DNA of 64,000 nt from a virus, in the IMG/VR virus record IMGVR_UViG_3300035670_008749, positions 1 to 64,000 of that record. One strand, written 5' to 3'. The translations under genes and the position numbers were made by a program. The notes beneath the pieces were generated by a model that had not been told where the DNA came from, did no database searches, and saw only the letters and a program-made list of their open reading frames with translations. The stretch's first letter is position 1. Each line of letters begins with the position of its first letter. Below, piece by piece: positions 1 through 51,162 of this stretch.

Positions 1-2
1 TC

Positions 3-760
3 TCAGGATCTTCAGGAACAAGTGGATCATCAGGATCTTCAGGAACTAGTGGAAGCTCAGGATCTTCAGGAACAAGTGGATCATCAGGATCTTCAGGAAC
101 TAGTGGAAGCTCAGGATCTTCAGGAACTAGTGGAAGCTCAGGATCTTCAGGAACATCAGGTTCTTCAGGAACAAGCGGATCTTCAGGAACTAGTGGAAGC
201 TCAGGATCTTCAGGAACAAGTGGATCATCAGGATCTTCAGGAACTAGTGGATCATCAGGATCTTCGGGAACATCAGGTTCTTCGGGAACTAGTGGATCTT
301 CGGGATCTTCAGGATCTTCAGGAACAAGTGGAACATCAGGTTCTTCAGGAACTAGTGGAAGCTCAGGATCTTCAGGAACTAGTGGATCTTCAGGAACTAG
401 TGGAAGCTCAGGATCTTCAGGAACAAGTGGTTCTTCAGGAACAAGTGGATCCTCAGGAACTAGTGGAAGCTCAGGATCTTCTGGAACAAGTGGAACTAGA
501 GGAACAAGTGGAACATCAGGTTCTTCTGGAACTAGTGGAAGCTCAGGATCTTCAGGAACAAGTGGATCATCAGGAACTAGTGGAAGCTCAGGATCTTCAG
601 GAACAAGTGGATCATCGGGAACATCAGGATCTTCAGGAACAAGTGGAAGCTCAGGATCTTCAGGAACTAGTGGATCTTCAGGAACTAGCGGAAGCTCAGG
701 ATCTTCAGGAACAAGTGGATCATCGGGAACATCGGGATCTTCAGGAACAAGTGGTACAGG
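3..760 (+). repeat. 9-bp-period degenerate tandem repeat encoding (G-S-S / G-T-S)n
   Basis: tcaggatct/tcaggaact/agtggaagc units; Gly at every third codon for about 250 codons. Confidence 0.95.
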
Positions 761-3437
761 ATTTACTGCTATTTCGCCGACGACAAACAATAATGTACTA
801 ACAGCTAACGGAACAACTAACACTGCTAATTCAGAACCAAATTTAACATTTAATGATTTAACTAATCTATTAACAGTTACAGGTACAGAAATAATAAATG
901 ATTCAACAAATAGCGGTATATCTCTAGAAATTAATTCTACTCCTTCTACTGCTGTTGCTTACACTTCTATTGACATTCTAACTCAGGGAGATGGCACAAA
1001 CGCTACGGATTTATTTGGAGTTAATGCTGATGTGTCTAAAGGAACACTCAAACAAGTAGCATTTAAAGGAAATGTTGATGGAGCAATTGATTACAATAGG
1101 GTATTCCAAGGTACTATAGCAAACGCAGCCAAAGGATCAGAAAATACTATATTTTATGGAGTCAACAGCGTTTCTACTAGCGCTAATGACGAAGAGTATG
1201 GATTTAATTTAACAGTTAATGGTAAAGGGTCTACAACTTCAGATAAATTTGGAGGATACATCTTAGTAGAAAACCCTAATAGAAAAAGTTTCGGAATAGA
1301 CATAGTGGTTAGAGATGCTGATGAGAACTACGGTATACGATCACAAGTTAAAGGAGGCAGTGGACCTGCTAATTACGCGGTTTATGCGTCAAATACATCT
1401 ACTATAGGAACAGCAGGGCCTGAACAGCAATGGGGAGGTTATTTTGAAGCAGCTGCTAGCGGGGATCCGGGAACAATGACAAAGTTCGGAATTCAGACGA
1501 TAGCTATAGGAGACGGATCTACTAACTATGGCGCAAACTTTTATGCTTCGGGTGCCGACCTTACCAACTATGGTTTATATTCTATGGTTGATGGACCTTC
1601 AGGAAGCATAGAAAACGTAGCAGTATTTGGAATAAATAGTTCGTCTATTTCTGCAGGAGGGGACTCAGAATATGGTGGATTCTTTATAGTTGACGCAAAG
1701 GGATCTCCCATAAGCACACTAAAGTACGGTGTGAGATCCATTGTAGATAGGTCAGGAGCAACAGGATACGGGGTACTTTCGCAAGTTAATGGTTCTGACA
1801 TTAATAACTATGGAGGTTATTTTGGAGTTAGTGGCACTTCAGGACCGGAAAACTACGGGGTTTACGCTTCTAACGAATCAGCTGTAGGCGCATTGAAGGA
1901 GGATCAGTGGGGAGGTTATTTTGAAGCAGTTGGTGCAGGACTCACCTCCGCAATGATCAAATATGGAGTTGACACTAGTGTTGCTAATGATGGAAGAATT
2001 AGCTATGGGGTTAGAACATCTGTTACCTCAGCAGATGAGTCTAACTGGGGAGTATATGCCGAGCTTAGCGGAACTTCTGGTGATAGAGGAAACGCGGCAG
2101 TATATGGAAGAAATAGCATTTCTAATCCTAACCCGCCAGGAAAAGGTGGACGTCCTGAATGGGGTGGATCCTTTGAAGTGGACGGAATAGGATTAACTGG
2201 AGGCACAGATAAGTTTGGCGTAGCTGGAAGAGTCACCCTAGCATCAAGATATTCATATGGAGTTTGGGGTCTTGCTCAAGATGCAGAAAGCGGTAGTTAC
2301 GGGGGATATTTTCTAGCCAAGGGAACTTCAGGATCAAATGCTGCTGTATCTGCAATAAACAGTTCTGTTAATGGCGCTGGATCTGATGCACAACACGGCG
2401 GATACTTTGAATCCTCTGGTGTAGGTTTACCATCATCAACAACCAAATATGGTATAGAAGCTAACGTAAACGGAAATGGTAAAACTCACTACGGGGTATT
2501 ATCGGTAGTTGAGGATGGAAACCAAACCAACTATGGCGTATATACAAAAGTACAGGGCACTTCTGGATCGAATTATGGAGTATACTCAATAAACGTATCT
2601 ACTGAGTCTGGTACTGACAGTCAATGGGCAGGATATTTTGAAGCATCTGCCACCGGAGGTTTAGGTACGAATAAGCACGGTATAGAGATATCAGTTAAAC
2701 ACTCAGCAGGAAATCACTACGGGGTTAAATCGGAAGTTCAGGGAGCCACTAACATTAATTACGGGGTAAAATCATCTGTCACAGGGTCAGCTGGTACAGC
2801 TAATTATGCAGTTCATGCAGTAAACTCTTCCTTTGATAACGGAGGCGGAGATACTCAATGGGGAGGATATTTCGAAGTTAGTGGGTCTTCGGGTTCAGGA
2901 GCTAAGTATGGCGTACAAGTTATTGCTACAGGAGCAGCTGGTACAAATTACGGAGTTCACGTAGAAACAACCTCAGGGAGCATTAATTATTCACTCTATG
3001 CTAATAAAGGAAGGCACACTTTCTATCACGATCCTAATACAGAATTAGGGGTAAATGATCCGGAAGGATATGGCGATATAGTGTATTTCGGCGGTGGGGG
3101 AAGCACATTTAATGCTGGTGATGTTGTTTATTTAGATAATGCGGGAGATTGGTTACAAACGGATGCAGCTGCAACTGGTACTGCCATTAATATGCTAGCT
3201 GTTGCACTAGGGACTGCCCCTAGTGATGGACTACTAGTTAGGGGATATGTTCGATATTCTGTATGGGGTTTTAACTCAGGAGAACCTCTATATTTAGAAA
3301 CTGGCGTACCTGGGGGAATTACAGGAACAGCTCCTAGTGCTGCTGGTGAAGTCGTAAGAATTATTGGGTATTGTACAGATGCAGCAAATAGGGATAAGAT
3401 CTACTTTAATCCCGATGGAAGTTGGATAGAAATATAA
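3..3437 (+). CDS. Tail/capsid fibre protein, 5'-truncated by the window: Gly-Ser/Thr-Ser collagen-like stalk, ~57-aa beta-rich repeats, C-terminal fibre/cement-like domain
   Basis: Frame 3 is open from base 3 (SGSSGTSGSSG...) through TGFTAISPTTNNNVLTANG into the tracked 1032..3437 ORF in the same frame. The true start is upstream of the window. Confidence 0.8.
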   Translation, partial: SGSSGTSGSSGSSGTSGSSGSSGTSGSSGSSGTSGSSGSSGTSGSSGSSGTSGSSGTSGSSGTSGSSGSSGTSGSSGSSGTSGSSGSSGTSGSSGTSGSSGSSGSSGTSGTSGSSGTSGSSGSSGTSGSSGTSGSSGSSGTSGSSGTSGSSGTSGSSGSSGTSGTRGTSGTSGSSGTSGSSGSSGTSGSSGTSGSSGSSGTSGSSGTSGSSGTSGSSGSSGTSGSSGTSGSSGSSGTSGSSGTSGSSGTSGTGFTAISPTTNNNVLTANGTTNTANSEPNLTFNDLTNLLTVTGTEIINDSTNSGISLEINSTPSTAVAYTSIDILTQGDGTNATDLFGVNADVSKGTLKQVAFKGNVDGAIDYNRVFQGTIANAAKGSENTIFYGVNSVSTSANDEEYGFNLTVNGKGSTTSDKFGGYILVENPNRKSFGIDIVVRDADENYGIRSQVKGGSGPANYAVYASNTSTIGTAGPEQQWGGYFEAAASGDPGTMTKFGIQTIAIGDGSTNYGANFYASGADLTNYGLYSMVDGPSGSIENVAVFGINSSSISAGGDSEYGGFFIVDAKGSPISTLKYGVRSIVDRSGATGYGVLSQVNGSDINNYGGYFGVSGTSGPENYGVYASNESAVGALKEDQWGGYFEAVGAGLTSAMIKYGVDTSVANDGRISYGVRTSVTSADESNWGVYAELSGTSGDRGNAAVYGRNSISNPNPPGKGGRPEWGGSFEVDGIGLTGGTDKFGVAGRVTLASRYSYGVWGLAQDAESGSYGGYFLAKGTSGSNAAVSAINSSVNGAGSDAQHGGYFESSGVGLPSSTTKYGIEANVNGNGKTHYGVLSVVEDGNQTNYGVYTKVQGTSGSNYGVYSINVSTESGTDSQWAGYFEASATGGLGTNKHGIEISVKHSAGNHYGVKSEVQGATNINYGVKSSVTGSAGTANYAVHAVNSSFDNGGGDTQWGGYFEVSGSSGSGAKYGVQVIATGAAGTNYGVHVETTSGSINYSLYANKGRHTFYHDPNTELGVNDPEGYGDIVYFGGGGSTFNAGDVVYLDNAGDWLQTDAAATGTAINMLAVALGTAPSDGLLVRGYVRYSVWGFNSGEPLYLETGVPGGITGTAPSAAGEVVRIIGYCTDAANRDKIYFNPDGSWIEI
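1290..3000 (+). repeat. Degenerate ~57-aa protein repeats in the fibre (NYGVY..V.GTSG..NYAVYA.N.S...QWGGYFEA.G....KYG)
   Basis: About 7-8 recurrences of (Q/E)(W/Y/H)GG(Y/F)F and NYG motifs in the translation. Confidence 0.75.
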
Positions 3438-3441
3438 TATT

Positions 3442-4611
3442 ATGCCTAAGGTAAACGGAGCAACTATAACATCAGAATCTAAAATAATGGGTAGAAGTGT
3501 TACCTCCATGTCGGGAATTATGGGGGTTAAAACCAAGAACATCCCCGGTTGGCCATCTGCTGCTTCTGGTCCTACTAATATTAGTCCCCCAGATATATTT
3601 GCCAACATCAGTCCGCCTCTGCTTTGGAACAATTACGGTGCACAAGCTAGCAGAGGAATATGGACCGGCACAGGAGACATATCATATCTTTATAAATGGT
3701 TTTCCAACGGCGAACTTATATCAACACAAGGTCCCTATCCATACGTAGATAGTAAAGGTAATATAAACGATTCCCCTCCTACGATAATGGTCGGACCTAG
3801 CGTGATGTTTACCACATTGGAGCTTCAAGTAACTGCGACTGATGATCTTGGTTCAACCACAGTTTCGACAAGTGCCCCGGTAGAGGATGCTAATTTAAAT
3901 ACCTTCCTAGCAAATTCGGGAATATCAGCTGAAAATAGAGTTGCAGCCTTGCAGTATTTACAAAAAGAGCTGATCGTTGGTGGTATTTTATCTAACAACT
4001 CGGCTAATTTAGATTATTATCCTTTTGCGGGAGAGGATGAATATCAAAATAAATGGTCTCTTGGAAATCCCTCTGAATATTTACAGTTTAGTGGATCCTG
4101 GAGTCATAGTGCTAATGGATCACAAACTAATGGAGGAATAGCAACAAGTACGAAGACATTTAATAATGAAATTAATAATCTGACCTGGGCTTATGGAATG
4201 TACACTAATACTAACGTGACAGAAAGCTCAATAGACCTATCTTTTAATACTATATACGGAAACTGGGAATTTGGAGCACAGCGTGATGTAGAAGGAGCAA
4301 GAAAAGTCTATTGGACTAGGCCAGGGGGAACAATTGATACTTCTATATCATCAGTAAGCTCAACTGGGCTTTCTGGACTATATAGGTACGGGCAAAATCC
4401 GCCTAATGAAATGATAGTAATATCCGGCGGAACAGTTCTGGGTCCAGTTTCTTTTGTGGGGGTATTCGAAGCAGCAAGAGGATATACTTTCGTTATAGGT
4501 GGGACAGGATCGACTAAAAACTTCCAATTTGCTTTTAATGGAAACAACTTTGTATATTGGGGACCACTTAAAACTATCCTAGAGAATTATAACACGATGT
4601 TAGGTAGATAA
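3442..4611 (+). CDS. Putative virion fibre-associated protein (Ig-like plus beta-sandwich domains)
   Basis: 389-aa ORF tightly coupled to the fibre gene; Ser/Gly/Asn-rich; YLYKW...LQVTATD Ig-like pattern. Confidence 0.55.
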   Translation: MPKVNGATITSESKIMGRSVTSMSGIMGVKTKNIPGWPSAASGPTNISPPDIFANISPPLLWNNYGAQASRGIWTGTGDISYLYKWFSNGELISTQGPYPYVDSKGNINDSPPTIMVGPSVMFTTLELQVTATDDLGSTTVSTSAPVEDANLNTFLANSGISAENRVAALQYLQKELIVGGILSNNSANLDYYPFAGEDEYQNKWSLGNPSEYLQFSGSWSHSANGSQTNGGIATSTKTFNNEINNLTWAYGMYTNTNVTESSIDLSFNTIYGNWEFGAQRDVEGARKVYWTRPGGTIDTSISSVSSTGLSGLYRYGQNPPNEMIVISGGTVLGPVSFVGVFEAARGYTFVIGGTGSTKNFQFAFNGNNFVYWGPLKTILENYNTMLGR

Positions 4612-4626
4612 TATATAAATATTGAA

Positions 4627-5658
4627 ATGGCTAGAGCTTTCGCATACAGTGCATCAGGAACACCTATCCCAGGAACAAAGAAATTATCAACTTTGTATTT
4701 CCAGGATGAGAACCTCGATTATTCATCAAATCCAGGTGGATTAACTTGGTGGCAGGGACCAGATGAAAATTTGGGATATATTATAACAAGAGCAGTTCCA
4801 TCACAGGATCACCCAACTCCTCTTGGGAATATAGGATCTGTAAAATTTTTTAGAACATCATCTTTTACAGAATCTGAGTTTATTTCTTTAGCACAATCAA
4901 TAGCTGGGCAAACCTTTGTTAGTGGAGATGCAGCTAAAATCTGGCTTAATTCTAATAACTATTGGACTTCTTATGAATCAATATATAATCCCACACTTCA
5001 GGTTTACTTAGACGCGGGTAATTCTTCGTCATACGGAGGAGTTGGTTCAACATGGAACGATTTAAGCGGAATAGGAAATAATGCAACACTAATTAATACT
5101 CCCACTTACAATTCATCGTCTGGCGGATATTTTAGTTTTAGCGATACATCATTTGAATATGCAACTATTCCCAACATTGGAGATCTATCCACTTGGACAG
5201 TTGAGGCTTGGGCTAGACCACAAAAATCATTAACAGGAAAGGTCACAATGATTGTTGGTAATCAATATAATCTAGCAACAAAGCTTAATTTTTCGCTCGG
5301 AACTAATAATGCTCCAACTAATTATAACATGACTGCAGGATTTTTTGACGGATCGTGGAAAAGCGCTAATGGTTATACGGTTCCCACATTAAATACCTGG
5401 TACCATTTTGTTGGAACATACGATGGATCAACGGTTAAATTATACGTTAACGGATCATTGTCATCTTCTTTTTCTGTATCAGGAACTCCTCAATCTGGGG
5501 GCGAAATTAGAATAGCAAGAAGATGGGACAGTGCATCTAATAATGCAGCAAACTTCTTTGATGGTGATATAAGTATAGTTAGAGTTTATGGAAGCGCTCT
5601 TAATTTAGTAGATGTACAAGGTAATTTTAACGCATCAAGACACAGATATTCTATTTAA
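4627..5658 (+). CDS. LamG/concanavalin A-like lectin domain virion protein with shared N-terminal module
   Basis: YLDAGN..SY.G.G.TW.DLSG, WYHFVGTYDGSTVKLYVNG and F.GDISIVRVY..AL motifs typical of phage LamG_3 domains. Confidence 0.85.
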   Translation: MARAFAYSASGTPIPGTKKLSTLYFQDENLDYSSNPGGLTWWQGPDENLGYIITRAVPSQDHPTPLGNIGSVKFFRTSSFTESEFISLAQSIAGQTFVSGDAAKIWLNSNNYWTSYESIYNPTLQVYLDAGNSSSYGGVGSTWNDLSGIGNNATLINTPTYNSSSGGYFSFSDTSFEYATIPNIGDLSTWTVEAWARPQKSLTGKVTMIVGNQYNLATKLNFSLGTNNAPTNYNMTAGFFDGSWKSANGYTVPTLNTWYHFVGTYDGSTVKLYVNGSLSSSFSVSGTPQSGGEIRIARRWDSASNNAANFFDGDISIVRVYGSALNLVDVQGNFNASRHRYSI

Positions 5659-5659
5659 T

Positions 5660-6442
5660 ATGGCATCAAGACAGTTTGCATACAATCCCACACAGGCTTC
5701 TATATCTGGAGCAACTTTAGTTGGAACTTTAGCTGTTGGAAGTAGCTCATTAGATTATTCATCAGATCCAGGAGGAATAGATTGGTGGATGGGACCGGAA
5801 GAAAGTACAGGATATGTTATAGCTACCGTTCATACACCATCTGATTTTCCTACCCCAGTAGGAAATGTAGGTACAGTTAAATTCTGGAGAACAAATGCTC
5901 TTAGCGACAGCGAATTTAGAAGTCTAGCAGAATACATAACCGGACAAACTTTTGTCGATGCAGCGGCAGCTAAAACATATTTAAATAATAATAGTTACTG
6001 GACTTCTTGGGCTCCTTCCGCAGTTACATTTTCACAGACATTCACGGGCGGGCAAGCACCGTCCACAGCCACAGAAAACGCATGGACAACATTTAGATCA
6101 CAGCTTACAGGATCTTATACAAGCATGGCTCTTTCAAATAATCTAGGACACAGTATTACAGTTACTGATGCAACTAAAGTACAAGACATAGCTAATGCTT
6201 TAAGAACAGCTACTACGGGTACAAACACCACAGTAGTTATAGGAGCTAATACATGGAGAATAGCTCACGGATGCGTAGCTGGTACTCCTAATGCTAATTC
6301 AATATATTTAACGACTGGAGGATTATGTACATGCGGAGGAACATACACAGTAAGACCCATGATAAAAAATGCCAATTGGGGAGGATTAAATGGAAGTTCT
6401 TGTAACCAGCCTACCCAAACAATAACGCTAACTTTCACATAA
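5660..6442 (+). CDS. Virion protein with N-terminal module paralogous to 4627..5658 and a different Cys-containing C-terminal domain
   Basis: ATG at 5660, in frame with the tracked 5612 start; LDYSS.PGG..WW.GP and N.YWTS shared with the upstream gene. Confidence 0.75.
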   Translation: MASRQFAYNPTQASISGATLVGTLAVGSSSLDYSSDPGGIDWWMGPEESTGYVIATVHTPSDFPTPVGNVGTVKFWRTNALSDSEFRSLAEYITGQTFVDAAAAKTYLNNNSYWTSWAPSAVTFSQTFTGGQAPSTATENAWTTFRSQLTGSYTSMALSNNLGHSITVTDATKVQDIANALRTATTGTNTTVVIGANTWRIAHGCVAGTPNANSIYLTTGGLCTCGGTYTVRPMIKNANWGGLNGSSCNQPTQTITLTFT

Positions 6443-6443
6443 T

Positions 6444-6578
6444 ATGTACTATATAATAGATTTAAGAAAAGACCCACCAGAAAAAGTTCCGGATGTGCAG
6501 TTCGAAACACAGGAAGAATGCTGTAACTGGATAGATGAAAATGGAGACGCATCCATTTACATTATAATCGAAGAATAA
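6444..6578 (+). CDS. Small hypothetical protein (44 aa, MYYIIDLRKDPPEKVPDVQFETQEECCNWIDENG...)
   Basis: ATG 1 nt after the previous stop, fills the gap; below the ORF-track length cutoff. Confidence 0.6.
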   Translation: MYYIIDLRKDPPEKVPDVQFETQEECCNWIDENGDASIYIIIEE

Positions 6579-6591
6579 TTCAATAACTCAA

Positions 6592-6620
6592 GAAAACTTT
6601 AATCATAAAAGGTCTATAAT
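6592..6620 (+). promoter_or_regulatory. Class B promoter-like motif GAAA-N19-TATAAT
   Basis: Same spacing at 30483, 37485, 51787 and 60408. Confidence 0.55.
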
Positions 6621-6637
6621 TTTTAATATAGATAATT

Positions 6638-9600
6638 ATGATTAAAGTTAGAGCTCACACTTGCTATTTAGGCCACAGTGGATATTCAGCACATTCAAGA
6701 TCTTTTTTTAGAGAACTTTCTAAACATGTTGATTTAAGAATAAGGAATTACACATGGGATTCAAATCCTGATTATATAAATGAAACAGACCTAGAAATAA
6801 TCGACAGAATAACTCTTAGAGATCCCGACGGAAAAGATAGCGACTATCCTATTTCACATTCATTTCCAAACTTAAATTGGAAAAATGTAAATTCGGAATT
6901 TACTCCAGATGTTGACATAGTCCTAATGGACATGGATCATTTCTATTTTTACGAAGAATATAATTCTAAAATAAAAATAGCATACACCGTATGGGAAAGC
7001 ACTGAGATACCAAATCACTTCTTTAAACAACTACTAAAATTTGATTACCTCTGGGTAGCCACAGAGTGGCACAAAGAAGTAATAGTAAATCAAGGATATC
7101 CAGAATTTAGAGTCTTTGTAGTAAACGAAGGAGTTAGCAATGAATTTTTTAATGAGGATGGATTTGCAGTTCCAGAGGACTATAATGATAATAGATTTAA
7201 ATTTATTTTCTTTGGTAGATGGGACTATAGAAAATCAGTTCCAGAAATAATAGATTCTTTTCTAAAGGCTTTTCCTAATAACGAGCCAGTAGATCTTATA
7301 ATAAGTGCGGATAATCCATACGCAGTTGATGGAATGAATAGCACAGAAGAAAGAATGAATCACTATGGATTTAATGACGAGAGAATAAAAATAAAACACT
7401 TCTTAACTAGAGAACAGTATGTAAACTACATAAAGAGTGGACATGTGCTAATAACTTGTGCTAGGAGCGAAGGGTGGAATATTCCCCTTATTGAAGCTAT
7501 GGCAGCAGGAACACCAGTGATCTACTCAGATTGGGGAGCTCAATTAGAATTTGCGGGAGGAAAAGGATCTCCCGTAAAAATAAGGACAGAACTACCAGCT
7601 TCGCTTGGTGCAGATCTAGGATTTGCTGGTAACACACCAGGACTTTATGCAGAACCAGACTACGAGGACTTAATAGAGGTATTAAAAGATTGCTTTAATA
7701 ATTATCAGGAGAAAAAAGAGTCTGCTGTTAAGCAGTCTGTTGAAATAAAACAAAAATACAATTGGGAAAAAATAGGGGAGAATGGATATTTCACACTACT
7801 AAAAGTTCTTCCTAGAAAAATAGAGTCAACTCCAAAGGGTGAAGCGGCTGTTGTTCTTTCACATTGCGAGACTAGAGATAAACTTTTGTGCCTAACTAGA
7901 TGTTTGATCAATTTGAAGTCTCAGGGATACTTTGTTATATTATCTTCCCATATATCAGTTCCCGATTACATATTAGATATGTGTGATTATTTTGTATGTG
8001 AAACAGATAATCCTATAGTGGAGAAAAAAGAGTATCACGCTCTTTCAAGAACCACACCAGTTCATTGGTTCAACTATCCAGGAGAATATCAGCTATCGTA
8101 TCCTTTCGATTTTAATCATGGATTTGCAGCTTTAAGACTTATTCAGAATGGTGTTAATGTAGCTATTCAAAACGGATTCAACAAAACACACTTTATAAAT
8201 TATGATTATATAATAGAAGATGAATCAACTATTCCTTCACACTCAGAAGCTTTAGATAGTTTTTCAGTGGTAAGTTATTTATGGAATGCTTATAAATCCA
8301 TCAATTCTGGATTTTTCTCTGCTATAAGCCAAGATTTGTATAAAGCTATAGAATCTACAAGAAAAAAAGCTGACTATTTTAGATTCGATGAGGTTGTAAT
8401 ATTAGAAGACTTTCTTTTCAGATGTATAGAAGAAAGCAGTTTATCGATCAATATAAGAGATCCTAAGGACGAAAAAAAGAAAAATATATTTAACTCCTTC
8501 ATGGTTAAAACTTATCCTTATATAAAGACAAATAAAGGCGGGTACGCTCATATTTATTTAGGTAAAGAAACATCAACAGGAGAGCACTTTGTATGCGTTT
8601 CAGGAACACAAGAAGAGGAGATAAAAGCAGAAATTATATACAACGGAGAAAGTGTAGAAGTCAAAGCACCATTCCATCCTATGAAATTTTTCACAATCCC
8701 AGATGAAATGATGAATAATGGATTTGAAGTTTATGTGCCCGAGTATGATATAAAATATGAATATTCTAAGGATTCTAAATATGCTGATATCAACATACAT
8801 AATAAGGACCTAATTTTTAATCTTTACGAGAGAGAACCTAAATTTAATATCCATTTTATAGATGGTCCTTTCGTAGAAATTAAGAACACTCCCGGTGGAG
8901 TTTTCTTAGTCCAATTCATAGACTCTGACACTAATACTATAAAATACGAGACAGTACTACAGAATAATCATTGGGCAAGATCCTCTTTTAAATACTATAT
9001 AAACTGGTTAATCAAGCTAACTAATTTAAAAACAAATAAAGTTTATGAGTATAGACAAGATTTAACAGGGAAAAGAATTCTTATTTCTTTTGAATCCTCT
9101 TCGTTAGGCGACACCTTAGCTTGGGTTCCTTATGCTGATGAGCTAAGAAAAAAATACAATGCTGATGTTTATGTGTCAACATTTAAAAATTCATTATTTT
9201 CTGGTCAATACCCAGAAGTAAAATTTATTCAACCTGGAACACCTGTTGATAATTTATATGCTTTATATAGGATAGGATGGTTTTATGATGGTGATAGATT
9301 CAATAGCTCTTTGAATCCATCGGACTTTAAAAATGAACCTTTACAAAAAACTGCTTCGGATATCTTAGGAATTGAGTATAGCCCAATACCAGCAAAGCTT
9401 AACTTACCAGATTTACCTAAACCTTTACAAGAACCCTATGTTTGTATTGCTATCCATTCAACAGCACAAGCTAAATACTGGAATAATCCTACAGGATGGC
9501 AAGAAGTTACAGATTGGCTAATATCAAATGGATATAAAGTTGTAATGCTGAGCCTAGAAGAAGATGGATACATGGGTAATTATTATCCAAAGGGTATAAC

Positions 9601-10543
9601 GCTAGTAGAAGGGGAAAGGAGCTTAACAAATGCAATAAACTATTTACAGCATTCTGAAATGTTTATAGGTATTGGATCTGGACTAAGCTGGCTTTCATGG
9701 TCTGCTGGTATACCAACAGTGATTATTTCAGGATTCAGTAATCCTATTACAGAACCTCTAGATGACAAGATAATAAGAATATTTAATGATCAAACATGTA
9801 ACAGCTGTTTTAACAGATATAGATTAGATGCAGGTGATTGGAATTGGTGTCCAGACCACAAAGGAACAGAAAGACAATTCGAATGTACTAAATCTATTAC
9901 AGGTTCTTCTGTAATAAAAGAAATATCTAAATTTCTAAATTTTAAAACACATCAAAAATCAGTAGGGACTATAATCGATGAATCATACTCTCTAGGAATG
10001 ATACAAAATCTAAGTGAGATAACGCAAGCAGCAGAGTTTTTTAAACAGATGAATGTTAAAAATTTCATGGAAATAGGAACAGATCAAGGGGGAACTTTTG
10101 CAATATGGAGCAAGCTATCAGAAGATGGTATAAGAATATCAGTTGATATGCCACACGGTACTTATGGAGTGAGCAGCTATGATGTGAATAAAAGAGATGA
10201 ATATCTTAGATCATTAGGTAGTAACGTAACCATGATACATGGAGATTCACACTCGGAAGAAATAAAAAATAGAATTTCATCTATGTTAAAAGAGGGGGAA
10301 TTAGATTTCCTTTTTATAGACGGAGATCACACATATGAAGGAGTTAAAAAAGATTACGAAGACTATAAGAAGTATGTTAAAGAAGGAGGATGGATAGGAT
10401 TTCATGACATAAAAGACACGGAGTTTCATAGGAACGCAAACTGTAGAGTTGATCTTTTATGGAATGAATTAGGAGGAGAAAAAATAGAATTTGTAGACAA
10501 TTCATCGCAGTATGGAGGAATAGGATTTATTAAAAAACAATAA
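6638..10543 (+). CDS. Multidomain enzyme: GT4 glycosyltransferase + unknown domain + TibC/AAH-like (BAHT) protein O-heptosyltransferase-like domain + class I SAM methyltransferase
   Basis: GT4: GRWDYRK, SEGWNIPLIEAMAAGTPVI. BAHT: SSSLGDTLAW, IGIGSGLSWLSW, CNSC...WCPDHKGTERQFEC. MTase: MEIGTDQGG, FIDGDHTY, GG.IGFHD. Confidence 0.85.
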   Translation: MIKVRAHTCYLGHSGYSAHSRSFFRELSKHVDLRIRNYTWDSNPDYINETDLEIIDRITLRDPDGKDSDYPISHSFPNLNWKNVNSEFTPDVDIVLMDMDHFYFYEEYNSKIKIAYTVWESTEIPNHFFKQLLKFDYLWVATEWHKEVIVNQGYPEFRVFVVNEGVSNEFFNEDGFAVPEDYNDNRFKFIFFGRWDYRKSVPEIIDSFLKAFPNNEPVDLIISADNPYAVDGMNSTEERMNHYGFNDERIKIKHFLTREQYVNYIKSGHVLITCARSEGWNIPLIEAMAAGTPVIYSDWGAQLEFAGGKGSPVKIRTELPASLGADLGFAGNTPGLYAEPDYEDLIEVLKDCFNNYQEKKESAVKQSVEIKQKYNWEKIGENGYFTLLKVLPRKIESTPKGEAAVVLSHCETRDKLLCLTRCLINLKSQGYFVILSSHISVPDYILDMCDYFVCETDNPIVEKKEYHALSRTTPVHWFNYPGEYQLSYPFDFNHGFAALRLIQNGVNVAIQNGFNKTHFINYDYIIEDESTIPSHSEALDSFSVVSYLWNAYKSINSGFFSAISQDLYKAIESTRKKADYFRFDEVVILEDFLFRCIEESSLSINIRDPKDEKKKNIFNSFMVKTYPYIKTNKGGYAHIYLGKETSTGEHFVCVSGTQEEEIKAEIIYNGESVEVKAPFHPMKFFTIPDEMMNNGFEVYVPEYDIKYEYSKDSKYADINIHNKDLIFNLYEREPKFNIHFIDGPFVEIKNTPGGVFLVQFIDSDTNTIKYETVLQNNHWARSSFKYYINWLIKLTNLKTNKVYEYRQDLTGKRILISFESSSLGDTLAWVPYADELRKKYNADVYVSTFKNSLFSGQYPEVKFIQPGTPVDNLYALYRIGWFYDGDRFNSSLNPSDFKNEPLQKTASDILGIEYSPIPAKLNLPDLPKPLQEPYVCIAIHSTAQAKYWNNPTGWQEVTDWLISNGYKVVMLSLEEDGYMGNYYPKGITLVEGERSLTNAINYLQHSEMFIGIGSGLSWLSWSAGIPTVIISGFSNPITEPLDDKIIRIFNDQTCNSCFNRYRLDAGDWNWCPDHKGTERQFECTKSITGSSVIKEISKFLNFKTHQKSVGTIIDESYSLGMIQNLSEITQAAEFFKQMNVKNFMEIGTDQGGTFAIWSKLSEDGIRISVDMPHGTYGVSSYDVNKRDEYLRSLGSNVTMIHGDSHSEEIKNRISSMLKEGELDFLFIDGDHTYEGVKKDYEDYKKYVKEGGWIGFHDIKDTEFHRNANCRVDLLWNELGGEKIEFVDNSSQYGGIGFIKKQ

Positions 10544-10544
10544 T

Positions 10545-11174
10545 ATGGCAAACGGGATATACAAGATAACGGAAGATTTTGAGAAAGCATTAGGAGATTA
10601 TACAGGAGCTCCTTATGTGGTAACAGTTGATAATCAGAGCAATGCTCTTTTTCTCGCTCTAATGTATGAAAAAGTATCAGGTATGGAAATCACTATTCCT
10701 GCTAGAACTTACCCGTCAGTACCTTGTGAAATTATCCATGCTGGTGCTAGGGTTAAATTTAAAGATGTTAAAGGTAAAACTTTAAAAGGTGCTTACCAAT
10801 TAGAGCCAACAAATGTTTGGGATTCTGCTTTAAAATTTACAGCTGATATGTATATCCCAGGAACTCATATGTGTGTATCTTTTACTGGACCGTATAAGCA
10901 CTTTAAGTTGAGCAAGGGTGGAGCTATTCTAACAGATAGCTTGGATGCTTATCATTGGTTTAAGAGAGCGAGATATTCTGGAAGAAGAGAATGTTCTTAC
11001 CATGACGATCACTTTGATATGTTAGGATGGAACTTCTATATGATGCCAGAATTAGCTGCTCGTGGTCTTTTACTTATGAATCAATTTTACAATACTGACG
11101 GTACTAAGAAAGTAAACCAAGATCTGGAACTTCCTTATCCTGATCTATCTAAATTTAAAATATACAAACAATGA
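10545..11174 (+). CDS. Short DegT/DnrJ/EryC1/StrS-family PLP sugar aminotransferase
   Basis: FE..L..YTG....V..., P.RTY.S, DSA, SF...KH...GG.ILTD, GWNFYM motifs; only 209 aa. Confidence 0.75.
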   Translation: MANGIYKITEDFEKALGDYTGAPYVVTVDNQSNALFLALMYEKVSGMEITIPARTYPSVPCEIIHAGARVKFKDVKGKTLKGAYQLEPTNVWDSALKFTADMYIPGTHMCVSFTGPYKHFKLSKGGAILTDSLDAYHWFKRARYSGRRECSYHDDHFDMLGWNFYMMPELAARGLLLMNQFYNTDGTKKVNQDLELPYPDLSKFKIYKQ

Positions 11175-11803
11175 TAATACCGACAAGAGAATCTTTAAGA
11201 ATTGTAAGAGATATAGCTGAAAATATGGAAGGTAATACCTTTCACCATCATTTTCATATTCTATATGATTTAAGAAGCCAAATAGAAAAAGATCACGTTA
11301 AATATTTAGAGATAGGTACACATTCGGGTGCTTCTGCTTGTCTAATGTTATTACATCCCAAAAAAACTGACGTCTTTGCAGTTGATTTATTAGAAAGTCC
11401 AATGCACTATGCAGTTTTAATAAACACTGCCAGATTTAAAATGCCAGAAAATTCTTTTGAATATTTTACAGGTAATTCAAGAGAAAGTAAATTTGTAGAT
11501 AAGATTACAAAAGAAGTAGGAAACATTGACATTCTTTTTATAGATGGTGATCATAGGAGAGAGGCAGTCATAGATGATTTTTTAAATTATAAGGATCTAC
11601 TAAACCCCGGAGGTTTTATTATATTTGACGACTACAACGACTATGAATACAATCCCATAGTTAAACATGGCGTTGATTATATAGTAAACGAATTACTTTT
11701 TGATGAATACGAAGTTTGGGGATTCTGTTACAATAAAGTAGGAGCTCATCCAGTAGAGATGATCTATAACAACGAATTTGTTATCAGAAAAAAAATTAAA
11801 TGA
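11171..11803 (+). CDS. Class I SAM-dependent methyltransferase (Methyltransf_24-like)
   Basis: YLEIGTHSGAS, LFIDGDH, LNPGGFIIFDDY. Confidence 0.85.
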   Translation: MIIPTRESLRIVRDIAENMEGNTFHHHFHILYDLRSQIEKDHVKYLEIGTHSGASACLMLLHPKKTDVFAVDLLESPMHYAVLINTARFKMPENSFEYFTGNSRESKFVDKITKEVGNIDILFIDGDHRREAVIDDFLNYKDLLNPGGFIIFDDYNDYEYNPIVKHGVDYIVNELLFDEYEVWGFCYNKVGAHPVEMIYNNEFVIRKKIK

Positions 11804-12378
11804 GGAAAGCTTTATTTGGATTTGGTGGACATGCTAAGGAAGTATATACACAGATAGGAGGAGATATAACATTTTTCGTTGATGATAATTACGCCAACGA
11901 AAAGACTCTACCTATATCTTCTTTTGATCCCGAAGAATTCCAAATAATGATATGTGTGGCTAATTCTTTTGAAAGAGAAAGAATAGCTAAAAGATTACCT
12001 AGCAAAACTAAATACTTTTCATTTATCCATCCTACATGCTTAGTCATGGACAATAATATAGAAATAGGGGAAGGATCTTTTATTGGAGCTTATTCAATAT
12101 TAACTACAAATATTAGATTAGGTAAGCACACATTAATTAATAGAGGAAATCATATAGGGCACGACACAATAGCAGGGGATTTTTTAAGTATGATGCCTGG
12201 ATCTATAATATCTGGAAATGTTACTATTGGGGATAGAGTGTATCTAGGGACTAATTCTTCTATTATAGAAAAAATTAAAGTGTGTGACGATGTTATACTA
12301 GGAGCTAATAGTGCCACAGTAAAAAATATAGATGTCCCTGGAACATATGTTGGTGTTCCCTCTAAAAAGATTAAATAA
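11800..12378 (+). CDS. NeuD/PglD-like sugar N/O-acetyltransferase (left-handed beta helix)
   Basis: G.GGHAKEV, IHP, IGHD, hexapeptide repeats, GVPSK. Confidence 0.9.
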   Translation: MRKALFGFGGHAKEVYTQIGGDITFFVDDNYANEKTLPISSFDPEEFQIMICVANSFERERIAKRLPSKTKYFSFIHPTCLVMDNNIEIGEGSFIGAYSILTTNIRLGKHTLINRGNHIGHDTIAGDFLSMMPGSIISGNVTIGDRVYLGTNSSIIEKIKVCDDVILGANSATVKNIDVPGTYVGVPSKKIK

Positions 12379-12382
12379 ATTT

Positions 12383-13342
12383 ATGGTACTTCACGACGAC
12401 GGACAAAGATTAAATTTTTTAGTTGGTGTTCATGTTTCTTACCGAGAGGCATTAACTGGAGGTATAGTTGCTATGCACATGTTAGCATATAAACTTGCTG
12501 AGAGAGGTCACAATGTTTATGTTTTTACAGATCCAGAATTTCCACACGAGAACATTAAAAAAATACAATCATATCCTTCAGAATATGTTGATGGAGTGCC
12601 CACTGTTTTTCATTGGGAAAATATACAATTCCCGATTAGGAACACTATCTCAATATATCCCCAGATAACCAGAGGAAATCCTTACAGAACTAAACATGTT
12701 TGTAGATGGATTTTGTATCACACAGAACTTCCTATTGAGGATGACTATGAATGTGATGATGCCTATTTTAATTTTGGAAATTTTAAAACTTTTAGAAATA
12801 TAGGAGATGATAAAAAGCTTACGGTTTTTGATTATAGATTTAAAGACCTATATGTAACTAATAAGGGTAAAAGAAAAGGGTTTTGTCATATATTTCATAA
12901 AAACACCCCAGAAGGGGCAAATGATTTTGTTTCTAAATTTAATTCAACAGATCTTGGAGCATGGAAAACTTCAGGATGCTATGATTATTTAAGGGAAAAG
13001 TTTAACGAGCATGAGTATTTTCTTACATACGACCAAAAAAGCTTTTTGACTCTAGCAGCTATTTTATGTGGATGTAAAGCAATTGTACTTAGAGATAATA
13101 TCATAAAAGAGGAATGGAGCAATGCCTTTACTGAATCCCTCTCATATAATTTAAAAATGACCCCCACCGAATACAGATTAAATAATCCTATTCAAATGTT
13201 CGGTGTTGCTTATGGAATAGATGACATATCCTGGGCAAATAAAACTATAGATTTAGCAAGAAACCATCTCGAAGAGCTACAAAAGATGGACGACAAAACC
13301 GTTGATTCGTTCATAGAATTTTGGTTAAGAAGAACAGAATAA
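12383..13342 (+). CDS. Putative GT-B-like glycosyltransferase / surface-polysaccharide protein
   Basis: GGIVAMH.L...L...GH.V, IYP.I..GNP, YD...L.A.LCGC; lies in the glycan cluster; ATG 12383 preferred over the overlapping 12332 start. Confidence 0.5.
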   Translation: MVLHDDGQRLNFLVGVHVSYREALTGGIVAMHMLAYKLAERGHNVYVFTDPEFPHENIKKIQSYPSEYVDGVPTVFHWENIQFPIRNTISIYPQITRGNPYRTKHVCRWILYHTELPIEDDYECDDAYFNFGNFKTFRNIGDDKKLTVFDYRFKDLYVTNKGKRKGFCHIFHKNTPEGANDFVSKFNSTDLGAWKTSGCYDYLREKFNEHEYFLTYDQKSFLTLAAILCGCKAIVLRDNIIKEEWSNAFTESLSYNLKMTPTEYRLNNPIQMFGVAYGIDDISWANKTIDLARNHLEELQKMDDKTVDSFIEFWLRRTE

Positions 13343-13384
13343 CATTTTAATTTAGGGATTTTAATTTATATCTCGTCCAGCGGG

Positions 13385-13439: not shown

Positions 13440-14006
13440 TTGAGTAAAATTAATAAAGGGCAAATGGTGATATCAGAAAAAAATAAGTTGTTGATAAATA
13501 GGGTGATAAACACCATCGATTGGCCTCTAATCCATAAATTTTATAAATTAGTGGGAAGGACAATAGGAAACGAAACCACACAAATCCCCGGAATAAAAAA
13601 GCTAGACAAAAAAGTAAAGCTAACAGATGAACATATAAAAGACGAGGTTTTACACGTTATAAATCACGTCGTTGAAAATGACATATCCCAATATATGTAT
13701 GGTCCATGGAATGTGATCTGGGTAAACGGAGAATGGGAAATGGAAATACCAGAGACTGACGAAAACGGGAAAGAAATAGAAAACGGAGAGAGTACTTTTA
13801 TTCCTATAATGGAGTCAATGTTGGAAGTATATTTTTCTCCTATGGTTGTAGTTTCAAAAGAAACTGTTTTTACTGAGGAAGAAATGGAGGAAAAGCCAGA
13901 AACGGTTGATCTACAAAAACAATTAGAAAAAGCTCTAAGCGATGAAAATTATGAACTAGCTTCAAAACTTAGAGATCTAATTGAGGTATATAAGAAACAG
14001 AAATGA
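13440..14006 (+). CDS. Hypothetical protein with C-terminal UvrB/UvrC (UVR) coiled-coil motif
   Basis: LQKQLEKALSDENYELASKLRDLI. Confidence 0.7.
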   Translation: MSKINKGQMVISEKNKLLINRVINTIDWPLIHKFYKLVGRTIGNETTQIPGIKKLDKKVKLTDEHIKDEVLHVINHVVENDISQYMYGPWNVIWVNGEWEMEIPETDENGKEIENGESTFIPIMESMLEVYFSPMVVVSKETVFTEEEMEEKPETVDLQKQLEKALSDENYELASKLRDLIEVYKKQK

Positions 14007-15692: not shown

Positions 15693-16445
15693 ATGGACAC
15701 AATAAGAAATGGATTCATTATAAGGATTCCTGAGGGGAATTACAAGGGATCATCACTTGCTAGAATTATATGTGACAGAATAAAAAGTTACTTAAGCTTA
15801 GGATATAAGTTATTTATAGTAGAGCTTTCTGAGAAGGATATAGAATTTTCCACTGAAGTTACTGAACCGGAGAAGGAGAGATTTTTTTATTATCTAGACG
15901 ATCTTAATATAAGAATCGCTTTTTATATAAAGAGTAAGTATCATGTAGTATCGACCGATCCTGATTCAAGAAAAAAAGCTAAGAACGAAATTATTAAGAT
16001 CGGCAGGTTTATAGAAGAGATAGACGCGGGAAGATTTGATATACCACTAATATGTCACATTGGAGGAGCTAATGGAAACAGAAGAAAAAGTATGGGGGAT
16101 TTTTGTAAATTCTTTGATACTCTTCCTTGGAGAATACAGAAACAAATAGCACTAATCAATGATGATAAGCCTAGTCTTTTTTCTGTTAAGGACTTATTGT
16201 CTGTTACTTATGTAGAGAAAAAAATACCTATCATATTTAGAACAGGATCTCATAGAACTAATCAAGGGGGTTTAACATATAAGGAAAGTCTTTTTTTAGC
16301 TGCTTCAACTTGGGCTGAAAGATCGAATCCTATAATGTTTTATTGTCCTTCTAGCAAAGAAGAAACTATAACGGTAAACGATCTTAATCCGTACAATTTA
16401 ATTATAGATGTGGCTTTTGATAACAATTTACCAGAACCTAACTAG
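15693..16445 (+). CDS. UV-damage endonuclease UvsE-like protein, apparently degenerate
   Basis: HIGG, LINDDK..LFSVKDLL, IPIIF, L.LAASTW match the UvsE layout, but the ENDD and FD.HH residues are altered. Confidence 0.6.
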   Translation: MDTIRNGFIIRIPEGNYKGSSLARIICDRIKSYLSLGYKLFIVELSEKDIEFSTEVTEPEKERFFYYLDDLNIRIAFYIKSKYHVVSTDPDSRKKAKNEIIKIGRFIEEIDAGRFDIPLICHIGGANGNRRKSMGDFCKFFDTLPWRIQKQIALINDDKPSLFSVKDLLSVTYVEKKIPIIFRTGSHRTNQGGLTYKESLFLAASTWAERSNPIMFYCPSSKEETITVNDLNPYNLIIDVAFDNNLPEPN

Positions 16446-16453
16446 AAAATTCT

Positions 16454-16461
16454 TACATTTG
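16454..16461 (+). promoter_or_regulatory. Bacteroidota primary-sigma -7 element (TAnnTTTG)
   Basis: TACATTTG in the 20-nt gap, 4 nt before the ATG of the Nei gene; no well-spaced -33 TTTG. Confidence 0.4.
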
Positions 16462-16465
16462 CTAT

Positions 16466-17266
16466 ATGCCAGAACTAGCAGAAATAAAAATAATGAGTGA
16501 CCACATTAATAATAAATGTGGGGATAAAGAATTTTTTCTCTTAGAAAAAAATCCAGCTCACAAGTCAAAAACGGATCTTTCCCCTATTCACGAAATAATT
16601 TCATCAGGGTGTAATATTTTCAGCGAAGCCAGAGGAAAAGAATTAAGAATGGATTTTAAAAATAAGGAAAACAAGATTTCTTTATTTTTTATGATGGGTA
16701 TGTCCGGTAATTTTAAATTTGGAAATTCTCAACAAGAACCAAAGCACACTCATTTAAAATTTCGTACAAGAGAAGGAGAATACCTTTATATGTATGATCT
16801 AAGGAGATTTGCTAGATGGAAAGTGGGAACTCAATGGAACACAGAAAGAGGTCCTTGCCCGGTAAATGAATTTGTGGAATTTAGAAAAAATTTACACGAA
16901 TCCCTAGATAGAAAATGCTTTCAAAAGCCTATCTATGAAGTATTAATGAATCAGGAATACTTTAACGGAATAGGAAATTATTTAAGAGCAGAAATACTTG
17001 GTAGGATAGATTCAGATCCCACAGTAAGCGGAAAAGAATTTATTACTAAGAATCCGGAAGTAGTTGATTTATGTAAACGTATACCACAAGAAGCTTACAT
17101 ATTGGGAGGAGGAAGATTAAAGGATTGGTATAATAATGAAAAAATAAATCAAGAAGATTTAGATTTTAAATCTTGGATGCGTTTTTATGGAAACATAGAA
17201 ACGTGTATGCCTTTTAAAGACTCAAACGGAAGAACTTTTTGGATTGATAAAAAATGGGTTCAGTAA
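16466..17266 (+). CDS. nei: Fpg/Nei family DNA glycosylase/AP lyase, NEIL1-like (zincless finger)
   Basis: N-terminal MPE, ARGKEL, GMSG, D.RRF, H2TH motif FNGIGNYLRAEIL, C-terminal KDSNGRTFW without a Cys4 zinc finger. Confidence 0.9.
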   Translation: MPELAEIKIMSDHINNKCGDKEFFLLEKNPAHKSKTDLSPIHEIISSGCNIFSEARGKELRMDFKNKENKISLFFMMGMSGNFKFGNSQQEPKHTHLKFRTREGEYLYMYDLRRFARWKVGTQWNTERGPCPVNEFVEFRKNLHESLDRKCFQKPIYEVLMNQEYFNGIGNYLRAEILGRIDSDPTVSGKEFITKNPEVVDLCKRIPQEAYILGGGRLKDWYNNEKINQEDLDFKSWMRFYGNIETCMPFKDSNGRTFWIDKKWVQ

Positions 17267-17271
17267 ATATA

Positions 17272-17538
17272 TTACCAGGCAACGTATCCTTTAGGCTTTC
17301 TTTGATTAGTAATAGCCTTACTCATCTTATCATTAGCTTTTATAAGATCGTCGATAGTCTTAACGTAATATCTTGTTTGTCCTGGCATTCCCCAGTCTCC
17401 TTTTTTCTTAAGATCAACAAAGTCATAAGTTGTAAGCTCGTCTCCTTCTACAGGACCGTGATCAACTCTACCATCTCTTTTGGTAGCCTTTTCAAACTCA
17501 TTTCTAGAGCTTATATTTTTATAACCGTATTTTTCCAT
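17272..17538 (-). CDS. Hypothetical protein (88 aa)
   Basis: Fills the gap; GATATATA on the minus strand at 17545-17552 just upstream. Confidence 0.65.
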   Translation of the reverse strand: MEKYGYKNISSRNEFEKATKRDGRVDHGPVEGDELTTYDFVDLKKKGDWGMPGQTRYYVKTIDDLIKANDKMSKAITNQRKPKGYVAW

Positions 17539-17552
17539 ATAAACTATATATC

Positions 17553-33957: not shown

Positions 33958-34034
33958 AATGTATATATCTTTAAACAAAGAAAAAGCCCAGATTTTAATC
34001 TAGGCTTTAATTTATTATAGTCTTTTGTTTAATC

Positions 34035-41258: not shown

Positions 41259-41261
41259 AAT

Positions 41262-41882: not shown

Positions 41883-41883
41883 G

Positions 41884-42471: not shown

Positions 42472-42473
42472 AT

Positions 42474-44125: not shown

Positions 44126-44127
44126 TT

Positions 44128-44826: not shown

Positions 44827-44830
44827 AAAA

Positions 44831-47174: not shown

Positions 47175-47178
47175 AAAA

Positions 47179-51152: not shown

Positions 51153-51162
51153 AAATATAAAT

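Follow-up and report, generated by a model that had tools for sequence, protein, structure and literature searches.

We identified, on a 64,000-nucleotide stretch of viral DNA (hereafter the window), a phage gene for a 1301-residue, four-module glycosylation enzyme (positions 6638–10543, + strand) that probably glycosylates the Gly-Ser/Thr tract of a fibre encoded upstream of it by the same phage. The window covers positions 1–64,000 of the 77.6 kb IMG/VR record IMGVR_UViG_3300035670_008749, which CheckV estimates to be ~26% complete and which is therefore taken to be a fragment of a jumbo-size tailed phage. One domain of the enzyme is a genuine member of the BAHT (TibC/Aah) family by sequence, fold and catalytic apparatus, and its branch of that family recurs, in phages and bacteria, beside Ser/Thr-rich Gly-X-Y repeats. 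An earlier note, made from the sequence of the window, had suggested a virion O-glycosylation system at this place; its observation is confirmed, and its interpretation is partly supported, namely in the identity of the enzyme and in the co-occurrence with the repeats.

The BAHT domain spans residues 752–1098 (8891–9931, + strand). It matches the NCBIfam model TIGR04414 ('autotransporter strand-loop-strand O-heptosyltransferase') with 316.5 bits and an E value of 2e-94 over model positions 25–373 of 374, above the curated cutoff of 200 bits (320.3 bits in the genome search), whereas the NCBIfam model of the lipopolysaccharide (LPS) heptosyltransferase I reaches only E 1e-3 on the enzyme. Among PDB sequences, phmmer returned TibC (4RB4/4RAP) as the sole match, with an E value of 2e-68 over TibC residues 36–393. 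Additionally, an AlphaFold2 model of the domain, built on 51 phage homologues, has a pLDDT of 93.4 and superposes on TibC (4RAP/4RB4) with a Foldseek E value of ~4e-35, a TM-score of 0.88–0.90 and a root-mean-square deviation of 2.7 Å over 355 columns. The next folds after TibC are those of WaaF/WaaC, with TM-scores of ~0.5, and all of them belong to ADP-heptose enzymes. Both the family model and the structural comparison thus bear out the assignment to the BAHT family that the earlier note had made from two motifs.

Those two motifs, SSSLGDTLAW and CNSC-x13-C-x11-C, hold the catalytic residue and the iron finger. In TibC, Asp110 serves as the catalytic base, Thr226 and Lys230 contact the β-phosphate, and Trp305 contacts O4 of the heptose (PMC4358343); we transferred the sites defined there via the phage–TibC alignment. 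Specifically, Asp825 in the LGD of the first motif is the equivalent of Asp110 and is invariant in 130/130 sequences, Thr942 and Lys946 correspond to Thr226 and Lys230, and Trp1018 corresponds to Trp305, the latter three being conserved in both clades of the tree described below. The iron-finger residues Cys1054, Cys1057, Cys1071 and Cys1083 (C-N-S-C-x13-C-x11-C, ending WCPDHKGTERQFEC) align with the cysteines of TibC. The four cysteines and the equivalents of Asp110, Lys230 and Trp305 are invariant, and that of Thr226 nearly so, in the 51 phage domains, and the same active-site residues are also conserved across the 130 phage and cellular sequences. Pro300 of TibC, which is Ser in Aah, is replaced by Gly in the phage enzyme.

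The proposed acceptor opens the fibre gene (3–3437, + strand), of which 1144 residues are seen because its 5' end is cut by the contig start. In composition, the tract (3–767, + strand) is a run of 84 consecutive triplets, consisting of 48 GSS, 34 GTS, one GTR and one GTG; the 82 GSS and GTS triplets agree with the more than 80 G-(S/T)-S triplets reported earlier. Fibre residues 1–255 comprise 131 Ser, 85 Gly, 37 Thr, one Arg and one Phe, so that the tract has a single charged residue and no Pro, and its DNA carries 27-, 45- and 108-nt tandem repeats. The tract is followed by a fibre body with a 14-residue Tyr-Gly (YG) periodicity and then by a C-terminal domain common to a few other phage fibres. 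Pfam matches only Collagen on the fibre (PF01391, E 6e-29), and PHROG tail-fibre families match its repeat part. Neither Pfam nor sequence searches found AIDA, strand-loop-strand or autotransporter repeats in the fibre. The fibre body was also considered as a mimic of an autotransporter passenger, a candidate rejected, as far as sequence can tell, because no AIDA-type repeat is detectable; few homologues of the fibre body exist.

BAHT-domain relatives are present on at least 484 of 2.9 million IMG/VR contigs, and they co-occur with (G-S/T-S/T)n proteins far beyond background and in a manner that tracks phylogeny, as had been predicted for phage genomes. Among the best 80 of these 484 loci, in which a repeat was sought within 10 kb, 55 have a Gly-X-Y open reading frame (ORF) within that distance, most with at least 75% Ser/Thr at the X and Y positions and close to no Pro. 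After dereplication at 90% BAHT identity, 31 of the 50 resulting clusters have a Ser/Thr-type repeat ORF, which lies within 2 kb in 17 clusters and within 200 bp in 7. Where full flanks are present, a repeat accompanies 19 of 27 rows of clade II, the tree clade to which the phage sequences belong. In the reverse direction, 18 of 79 loci picked solely by similarity to the repeat carry a BAHT domain within 10 kb. One 249 kb contig, 90% complete, has all of its repeat matches 2–10 kb from the BAHT gene and nowhere else; a 176 kb contig has no repeat match, and another has a match at the contig end only. Contigs very often start or end inside a Gly-Ser/Thr repeat (for example L005, L006, L010, L013, L040 and L046, and the window itself at base 1). 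Since repeats break metagenome assemblies, fibre genes are hidden and these co-occurrence counts are biased downward.

Individual relatives show how the pairing varies. The closest relative of the window's enzyme (L003) has the same four-module architecture and encodes an Ala/Gln collagen with repeated embedded GSSGTSG cassettes; it had been considered as a counterexample on account of a Ser/Thr fraction of 0.03 in its longest run, and was rejected as such because of these cassettes. The sole cultured carrier, Microcystis phage Mel-JY01 (L002, PP395634.1), has a GSS/GTS frame, then a 'structural protein' and then a BAHT fusion. Its repeat frame (2–3049) is a 1016-residue open frame on the + strand that contains 185 GSS/GTS triplets and runs off the start of the record, and its BAHT fusion (4750–8430) carries the deposited label 'methyltransferase FkbM'. 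The deposited annotation lays minus-strand hypothetical ORFs over the repeat frame instead of one gene, and the repeat fibre is probably mis-annotated. Small repeat ORFs also lie at 9.1–10.0 kb of the Mel-JY01 genome. The BAHT domain also reaches the largest known phage genomes: it is present, at 36–43% identity, in the unannotated uncultured huge phages LR756501.1, LR756503.1 and LR756504.1 (636–735 kb).

Relatives of the domain occur on at least 585 contigs of cellular genomes as well, and a maximum-likelihood tree of 130 dereplicated phage and cellular BAHT domains separates two clades by a branch with 100% support and a length of 0.65. Clade I consists of 43 rows, all cellular, from Enterobacteriaceae, Paraburkholderia, Acetobacteraceae, Selenomonadales and others; none of the 43 has a repeat neighbour, 28 have a giant ORF nearby, and the four giant ORFs that were checked are AIDA autotransporters. 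Clade II consists of 87 rows, comprising every phage sequence together with Methylococcales, other Gammaproteobacteria, Bdellovibrionota, Bacteroides and Ignavibacteriota metagenome-assembled genomes (MAGs), and 58 of the 87 have a Ser/Thr Gly-X-Y neighbour. In an unbiased set, which leaves out the repeat-selected loci and the window itself and counts neighbours within 10 kb, the repeat is found in 44 of 72 clade II rows and in 0 of 43 clade I rows (Fisher p = 7e-13), and the cellular rows alone give 14 of 23 and 0 of 43 (p = 1e-8); these p-values take no account of phylogeny and overstate independence, because the pattern is essentially one partner switch followed by maintenance. The coupling persists at identities as low as ~40% and despite differences in the order and strand of the genes.

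The bacterial members of clade II provide the strongest argument for an enzyme–substrate link. The proteins paired with them are small, carry signal peptides or lipoboxes, and have only the (GTS)n/(GSS)n tract in common. In the four bacterial loci that were checked, the neighbours are housekeeping genes (LpxC, FtsA, FtsZ, Ddl, pyruvate kinase and HrcA), and the loci are not prophages. Coupling outside prophages argues for an enzyme–substrate link rather than for hitch-hiking in phage structural modules, and because the partners share the tract only, it is the tract, and not the rest of the fibre, that the enzyme appears to need. At seven bacterial loci (L173, L175, L163, L167, L169, L181 and L183), from Methylococcales, other Gammaproteobacteria, a Burkholderiaceae MAG and a Pseudobdellovibrionaceae MAG, a clade II BAHT gene stands alone, and a small secreted protein or lipoprotein with a (GTS)n/(GSS)n tract is encoded within ~1 kb of it. 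These bacterial pairs of a BAHT gene and a (GTS)n protein look like an undescribed bacterial glycoprotein system.

We propose that the BAHT domain, with Asp825 as catalytic base, would transfer a sugar to serines of the fibre tract encoded 3.2 kb upstream. TibC is cytoplasmic and acts before export, and it glycosylates Ser in short synthetic peptides (PMC4358343); by analogy, transfer to the tract may take place in the cytoplasm of the infected cell, ahead of virion assembly or in its course, and a flexible Ser-rich tract would be a workable acceptor. The sugar would most likely be a heptose, with a nucleotide-heptose made by the host as its source. Next, the GT4 and GT-A-type modules of the fusion could extend the glycan, and the C-terminal S-adenosylmethionine (SAM)-dependent methyltransferase could O-methylate it; we infer both the identity of the sugar and this order of the modules. 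Neighbouring genes might supply or tailor further sugars, through a short DegT-like protein, a methyltransferase and a PglD-like acetyltransferase close by and through Gmd, Fcl, GT11 and GT6 farther off. The outcome would be a densely glycosylated, extended fibre segment.

Several observations weigh against this proposal. About 30% of the full-flank clade II loci have no such repeat within 10 kb, and one subclade adjoins more ordinary collagen-like proteins with 26–37% Ser/Thr. TibC works as a dodecamer around a folded β-helix, and the 1301-residue fusion may not assemble in this way. TibC modifies Ser and not Thr (PMC4358343), so the earlier suggestion that Ser and Thr are both primed needs amending as to Thr; the Ser-rich tract on which it drew is present. 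The fibre is assigned to the virion only from the PHROG matches to its repeat and from its position near structural genes. Finally, Arg286 of TibC is Ala999 in the phage enzyme; of the 43 clade I sequences, 42 have Arg at this position, which is V, T, L, R, I or A in clade II. No ADP-heptose genes (rfaE domain II, gmhA or hldE-type) were found on the fragment or in three of four large related contigs, so that supply by the host or another donor is needed. The replaced Arg286 and the undetected ADP-heptose genes make the sugar donor the weakest link of the mechanism.

These last points are what favours an alternative in which the acceptor is the same and the donor is not ADP-heptose, clade II using another nucleotide or another sugar, which we consider unlikely. 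In TibC, Arg286 contacts N1 of the adenine and is the basis of ADP specificity; it is highly conserved in BAHTs, and the R286A mutant loses activity (PMC4358343). Most clade II sequences lack this Arg, and the phage encodes GDP-sugar enzymes (Gmd and an Fcl-like reductase) along with many other transferases. On the other hand, the Arg286 contact is called weak by PMC4358343 itself, the heptose-O4 contact of Trp305 and the β-phosphate contacts of Thr226 and Lys230 are kept in both clades, the nearest folds beyond TibC are all ADP-heptose enzymes, and one large related contig encodes an HldC-like adenylyltransferase (87 bits).

It is improbable that other virion sites, such as the YG-repeat body, the LamG protein described below or the capsid, are glycosylated and that the tract is merely a flexible spacer. 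Classical BAHTs do recognise folded β-helical repeats, the fibre body has its regular 14-residue YG periodicity, and relatives of the LamG protein and of a 276-residue ORF of the fibre cluster recur in 11–12 of the 80 BAHT loci. The undetectability of an AIDA-type repeat in the fibre speaks against this, as do the distribution of the fibre-body homologues, which are found in few BAHT loci whereas the tract is found in most, the bacterial partners, which share the tract alone, and the closest relative, which keeps GSSGTSG cassettes within an Ala/Gln collagen. Action on the host, on the LPS core or on surface proteins and for example in superinfection exclusion, with incidental proximity to the fibre, would suit the frequency of LPS-modifying transferases in phages, the second gene block of the window, whose Kdo-, fucose- and GT6/GT11-type genes are of a kind that typically serves the synthesis of surface polysaccharides, and GT9 being primarily the LPS heptosyltransferase family, but it is highly improbable given the 316 bits on the protein-heptosyltransferase model as against E 1e-3 on LPS heptosyltransferase I, the TM-score of only ~0.5 to WaaC/WaaF, and a clade-specific coupling to repeats across gene orders, strands and bacterial chromosomes that would be unexpected for an LPS enzyme.

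Keeping glycosylation of the tract as the preferred reading, we tentatively extend it, as a possibility that we would not yet bet on, to clade II as a whole. These BAHTs may constitute an undescribed O-glycosylation system, spread over hundreds of uncultured phages and several phyla of bacteria, for which the (Gly-Ser/Thr-Ser/Thr)n tract is the sequon; the phage fusion would give fibre stalks a coat of capped oligosaccharide, the nucleotide of the donor may not be that of the classical family, and dense glycan may replace proline in keeping the tract extended or triple-helical. Triple helices of collagen usually rely on Pro/Hyp or on charged pairs, and worm cuticle collagen offers a precedent for glycosylated Thr stabilising a Gly-X-Y helix. 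For this tract a collagen triple helix is doubtful. The tract is also found in small secreted proteins of bacteria and at the ends of small lipoproteins, which points to an extended, glycan-bearing stalk more than to a true collagen; a mucin-like stalk of this kind is no less likely than a collagen triple helix without Pro.

In the 1301-residue ORF, the modules follow one another as GT4, a putative GT-A fold with β-sandwich, BAHT and SAM-dependent methyltransferase. The GT4 module, which has a GT-B fold, covers residues ~87–381 (6896–7780, + strand) and matches Glycos_transf_1 (residues 183–304, E 6e-11) and phrog_2170 (E 1e-29). The methyltransferase covers residues ~1121–1258 (9998–10411, + strand), matches Methyltransf_24 (residues 1145–1258) and resembles the CmcI/rhamnosyl O-methyltransferases; Pfam additionally places Glyco_transf_9 (GT9) at residues 930–1060, within the BAHT domain. 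The fusion of BAHT to GT4 and methyltransferase was thus read correctly in the earlier note, and its proposed order of BAHT, then GT4, then methyl cap names modules that are all present; it was incomplete, as it missed a probable third transferase module, of GT-A type. This middle module, residues 395–750 (7820–8887, + strand), has no sequence family match in Pfam or PHROGs. Its AlphaFold2 model (pLDDT 80.6) consists of a GT-A-type Rossmann domain (~395–620) followed by a β-sandwich, and Foldseek matches it at E ~1e-5 to KdsB, the glycosyltransferase domains of LH3/COLGALT1, WrtF and PBCV-1 A64R with TMq values of only 0.31–0.39. Given these modest TM values, the model suggests a GT-A-fold module resembling nucleotide-sugar transferases, and an NYDY motif is invariant in the alignment of its homologues. 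Neither the BAHT nor the GT-A module is represented among the PHROG families, and megablast of the enzyme gene against 50,697 phage records gave no match.

Between the fibre gene and the enzyme, the fibre cluster continues with three structural-type ORFs on the + strand. The first (389 residues, 3442–4611) has no family match in Pfam and PHROG searches. The second (343 residues, 4627–5658) is a concanavalin-A-like/LamG protein, with matches to Laminin_G_3 (E 5e-22) and to the virion structural protein family phrog_8510. The third (276 residues, 5612–6442) has no Pfam family, and its relatives are found in 11 of the 80 BAHT loci.

Downstream of the enzyme, the earlier note had listed an aminotransferase, a methyltransferase and an acetyltransferase, of which the last two hold. 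The stand-alone methyltransferase (11171–11803, + strand) is assigned to Methyltransf_24 by Pfam, and the next gene (11800–12378, + strand) encodes a NeuD/PglD/VioB-family sugar N-acetyltransferase, supported by Pfam Hexapep and PglD_N and by TIGR03570 (E 1e-41, 142.6 bits, below the cutoff of 160.8). The supposed aminotransferase (10545–11174, + strand) is a shortened protein resembling DegT and perosamine synthase, with 209 residues in place of ~370. Its Pfam match covers profile positions 24–98 of 360 only, and the PDB alignment adds a weak SF..P.KH..GGA-type stretch; the N-terminal part is kept and much of the fold is lacking, which makes aminotransferase activity uncertain. The co-directional block is closed by a 336-residue ORF (12332–13342, + strand), for which searches of Pfam, NCBIfam, PHROGs and the PDB sequences gave no match. 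The block (3–13342) has all its ORFs on the + strand, and no gap between them exceeds 196 bp.

A second, likewise co-directional sugar-pathway block (38921–51783, + strand) encodes a GT2, a GT6, three FkbM methyltransferases, a GT11 (a fucosyltransferase family), an Fcl-like reductase, Gmd (E 1e-138), a SIS isomerase, a KdsA-like synthase, another GT2 and a Methyltransf_24 protein. Gmd and Fcl together yield GDP-fucose, and Gmd with a perosamine-synthase-type aminotransferase and a PglD/PerB-type acetyltransferase would yield GDP-N-acetylperosamine. The 192-residue SIS protein at 49108 is read as an isomerase of the 3-deoxy-D-manno-oct-2-ulosonic acid (Kdo) pathway because it adjoins the KdsA-like gene and gmhA gave no match. 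As predicted from these family matches, the block comprises the enzymes for making GDP-fucose, Kdo and a fucosylated glycan extended by GT6, and it may supply donors or extend glycans.

The remainder of the record contains head genes and further features. The head maturation protease (21694–23784) is followed by the major capsid protein (23794–25572). The octamer GATATATA is only modestly enriched, with 13 copies across 13385–52608 against 6.9 expected and 4 of 100 shuffles reaching 13; most copies lie a short way upstream of starts of the same orientation in the region of the head genes. No copy lies in 1–13384, and hence none inside the glycosylation block, so the motif gives no positive evidence of late expression for the block. 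A promoter and terminator scan of 3–14.2 kb gave no more hits than shuffled sequence, and no tRNAs were found in the window. A DNA repair cluster at 15693–18248, between the glycosylation block and the head genes, encodes a UvdE-like UV endonuclease, an Fpg/Nei-type glycosylase and a 3'-5' exonuclease resembling that of PolB, and a protein with UvrB/UvrC motifs is encoded at 13440–14006. A 214-residue protein made almost wholly of Asp and Glu (34035–34679, − strand) adjoins a RimK-like ATP-grasp protein (32464–33978, − strand; phrog_2599). A frame with 82% Ser/Thr at 34033–34632 (+ strand), tried as a second substrate, was rejected because it is the antisense of this poly-Asp/Glu gene. Beyond the window, an open frame of 1810 residues (72202–77631, + strand) reaches the contig end and includes a stretch of 50 residues with 52% Ser/Thr and without a Gly-X-Y run. 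Its product may be a further structural protein, perhaps with a region that is glycosylated.

To our knowledge, BAHTs are known solely as virulence-associated heptosylation enzymes of autotransporter adhesins in Proteobacteria. The present analysis adds a large sister clade of BAHTs with a different partner, the Gly-Ser/Thr repeat, and every viral sequence in the tree falls there. If the tract is the acceptor, an enzyme and GSSGTS repeats would together form a simple, portable glycosylation tag for glycoengineering, virion glycosylation would extend from mycobacteriophages to large aquatic phages, and many odd Pro-free 'collagen-like' fibres in phage metagenomes would be explained. The analysis also exposes a systematic annotation gap, in that the domain lacks a PHROG family and the Mel-JY01 gene is mislabelled with its repeat fibre unannotated. 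In the full-text literature, of which part of the journals was covered, we found no paper on a phage BAHT or on a link between BAHTs and such repeats.

Among known systems, WaaC/WaaF of the GT9 family share with the phage enzyme the GT-B fold and the Pfam GT9 match at residues 930–1060; they differ in their low identity (~12–16%) and TM-score (~0.5), lack the Cys finger and the N-terminal β domain, and act on a lipid acceptor. BclA of the Bacillus anthracis exosporium forms a Thr-rich Gly-X-Y filament that is O-glycosylated and capped with a methylated, N-acylated 4-amino-4,6-dideoxy sugar (PMC7793302, PMC6222408). The phage likewise has an aminotransferase-like gene, an N-acetyltransferase and methyltransferases beside its transferases, a resemblance by analogy only; the BclA repeats are of the GPT type and contain Pro, and the BclA transferases are not BAHTs. 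Mycobacteriophages encode glycosyltransferases that O-glycosylate their own structural proteins (Freeman et al. 2023, PMC10527164, as cited in PMC12619734); as far as the account in PMC12619734 goes, these actinobacteriophages modify their capsid and tail-tube subunits at the C-terminus, and neither a BAHT nor a Gly-Ser/Thr fibre is involved. The BclA and mycobacteriophage systems are thus precedents for the biology and not for the enzyme.

The closest known system is that of TibC and Aah, the classical BAHTs (TIGR04414; 4RAP/4RB4; PMC4358343). The phage domain shares with them the sequence family, the fold including the N-terminal β-strand region, the LGD catalytic Asp, the β-phosphate Thr and Lys, the heptose-contacting Trp and the four-Cys iron finger, and its gene likewise adjoins that of a Ser-rich repetitive surface protein. 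It differs in falling into a separate clade on a long, fully supported branch, in not conserving Arg286, in having as neighbour a Gly-Ser/Thr-Ser repeat protein and not an AIDA-type autotransporter, and in being encoded by a phage as part of a 1301-residue protein that also contains GT4, a probable GT-A-fold module and a methyltransferase. Because two classical features, the autotransporter partner and the conserved Arg286, are absent, we place the phage enzyme and its relatives in a sister clade of the classical BAHTs with a new class of acceptor.

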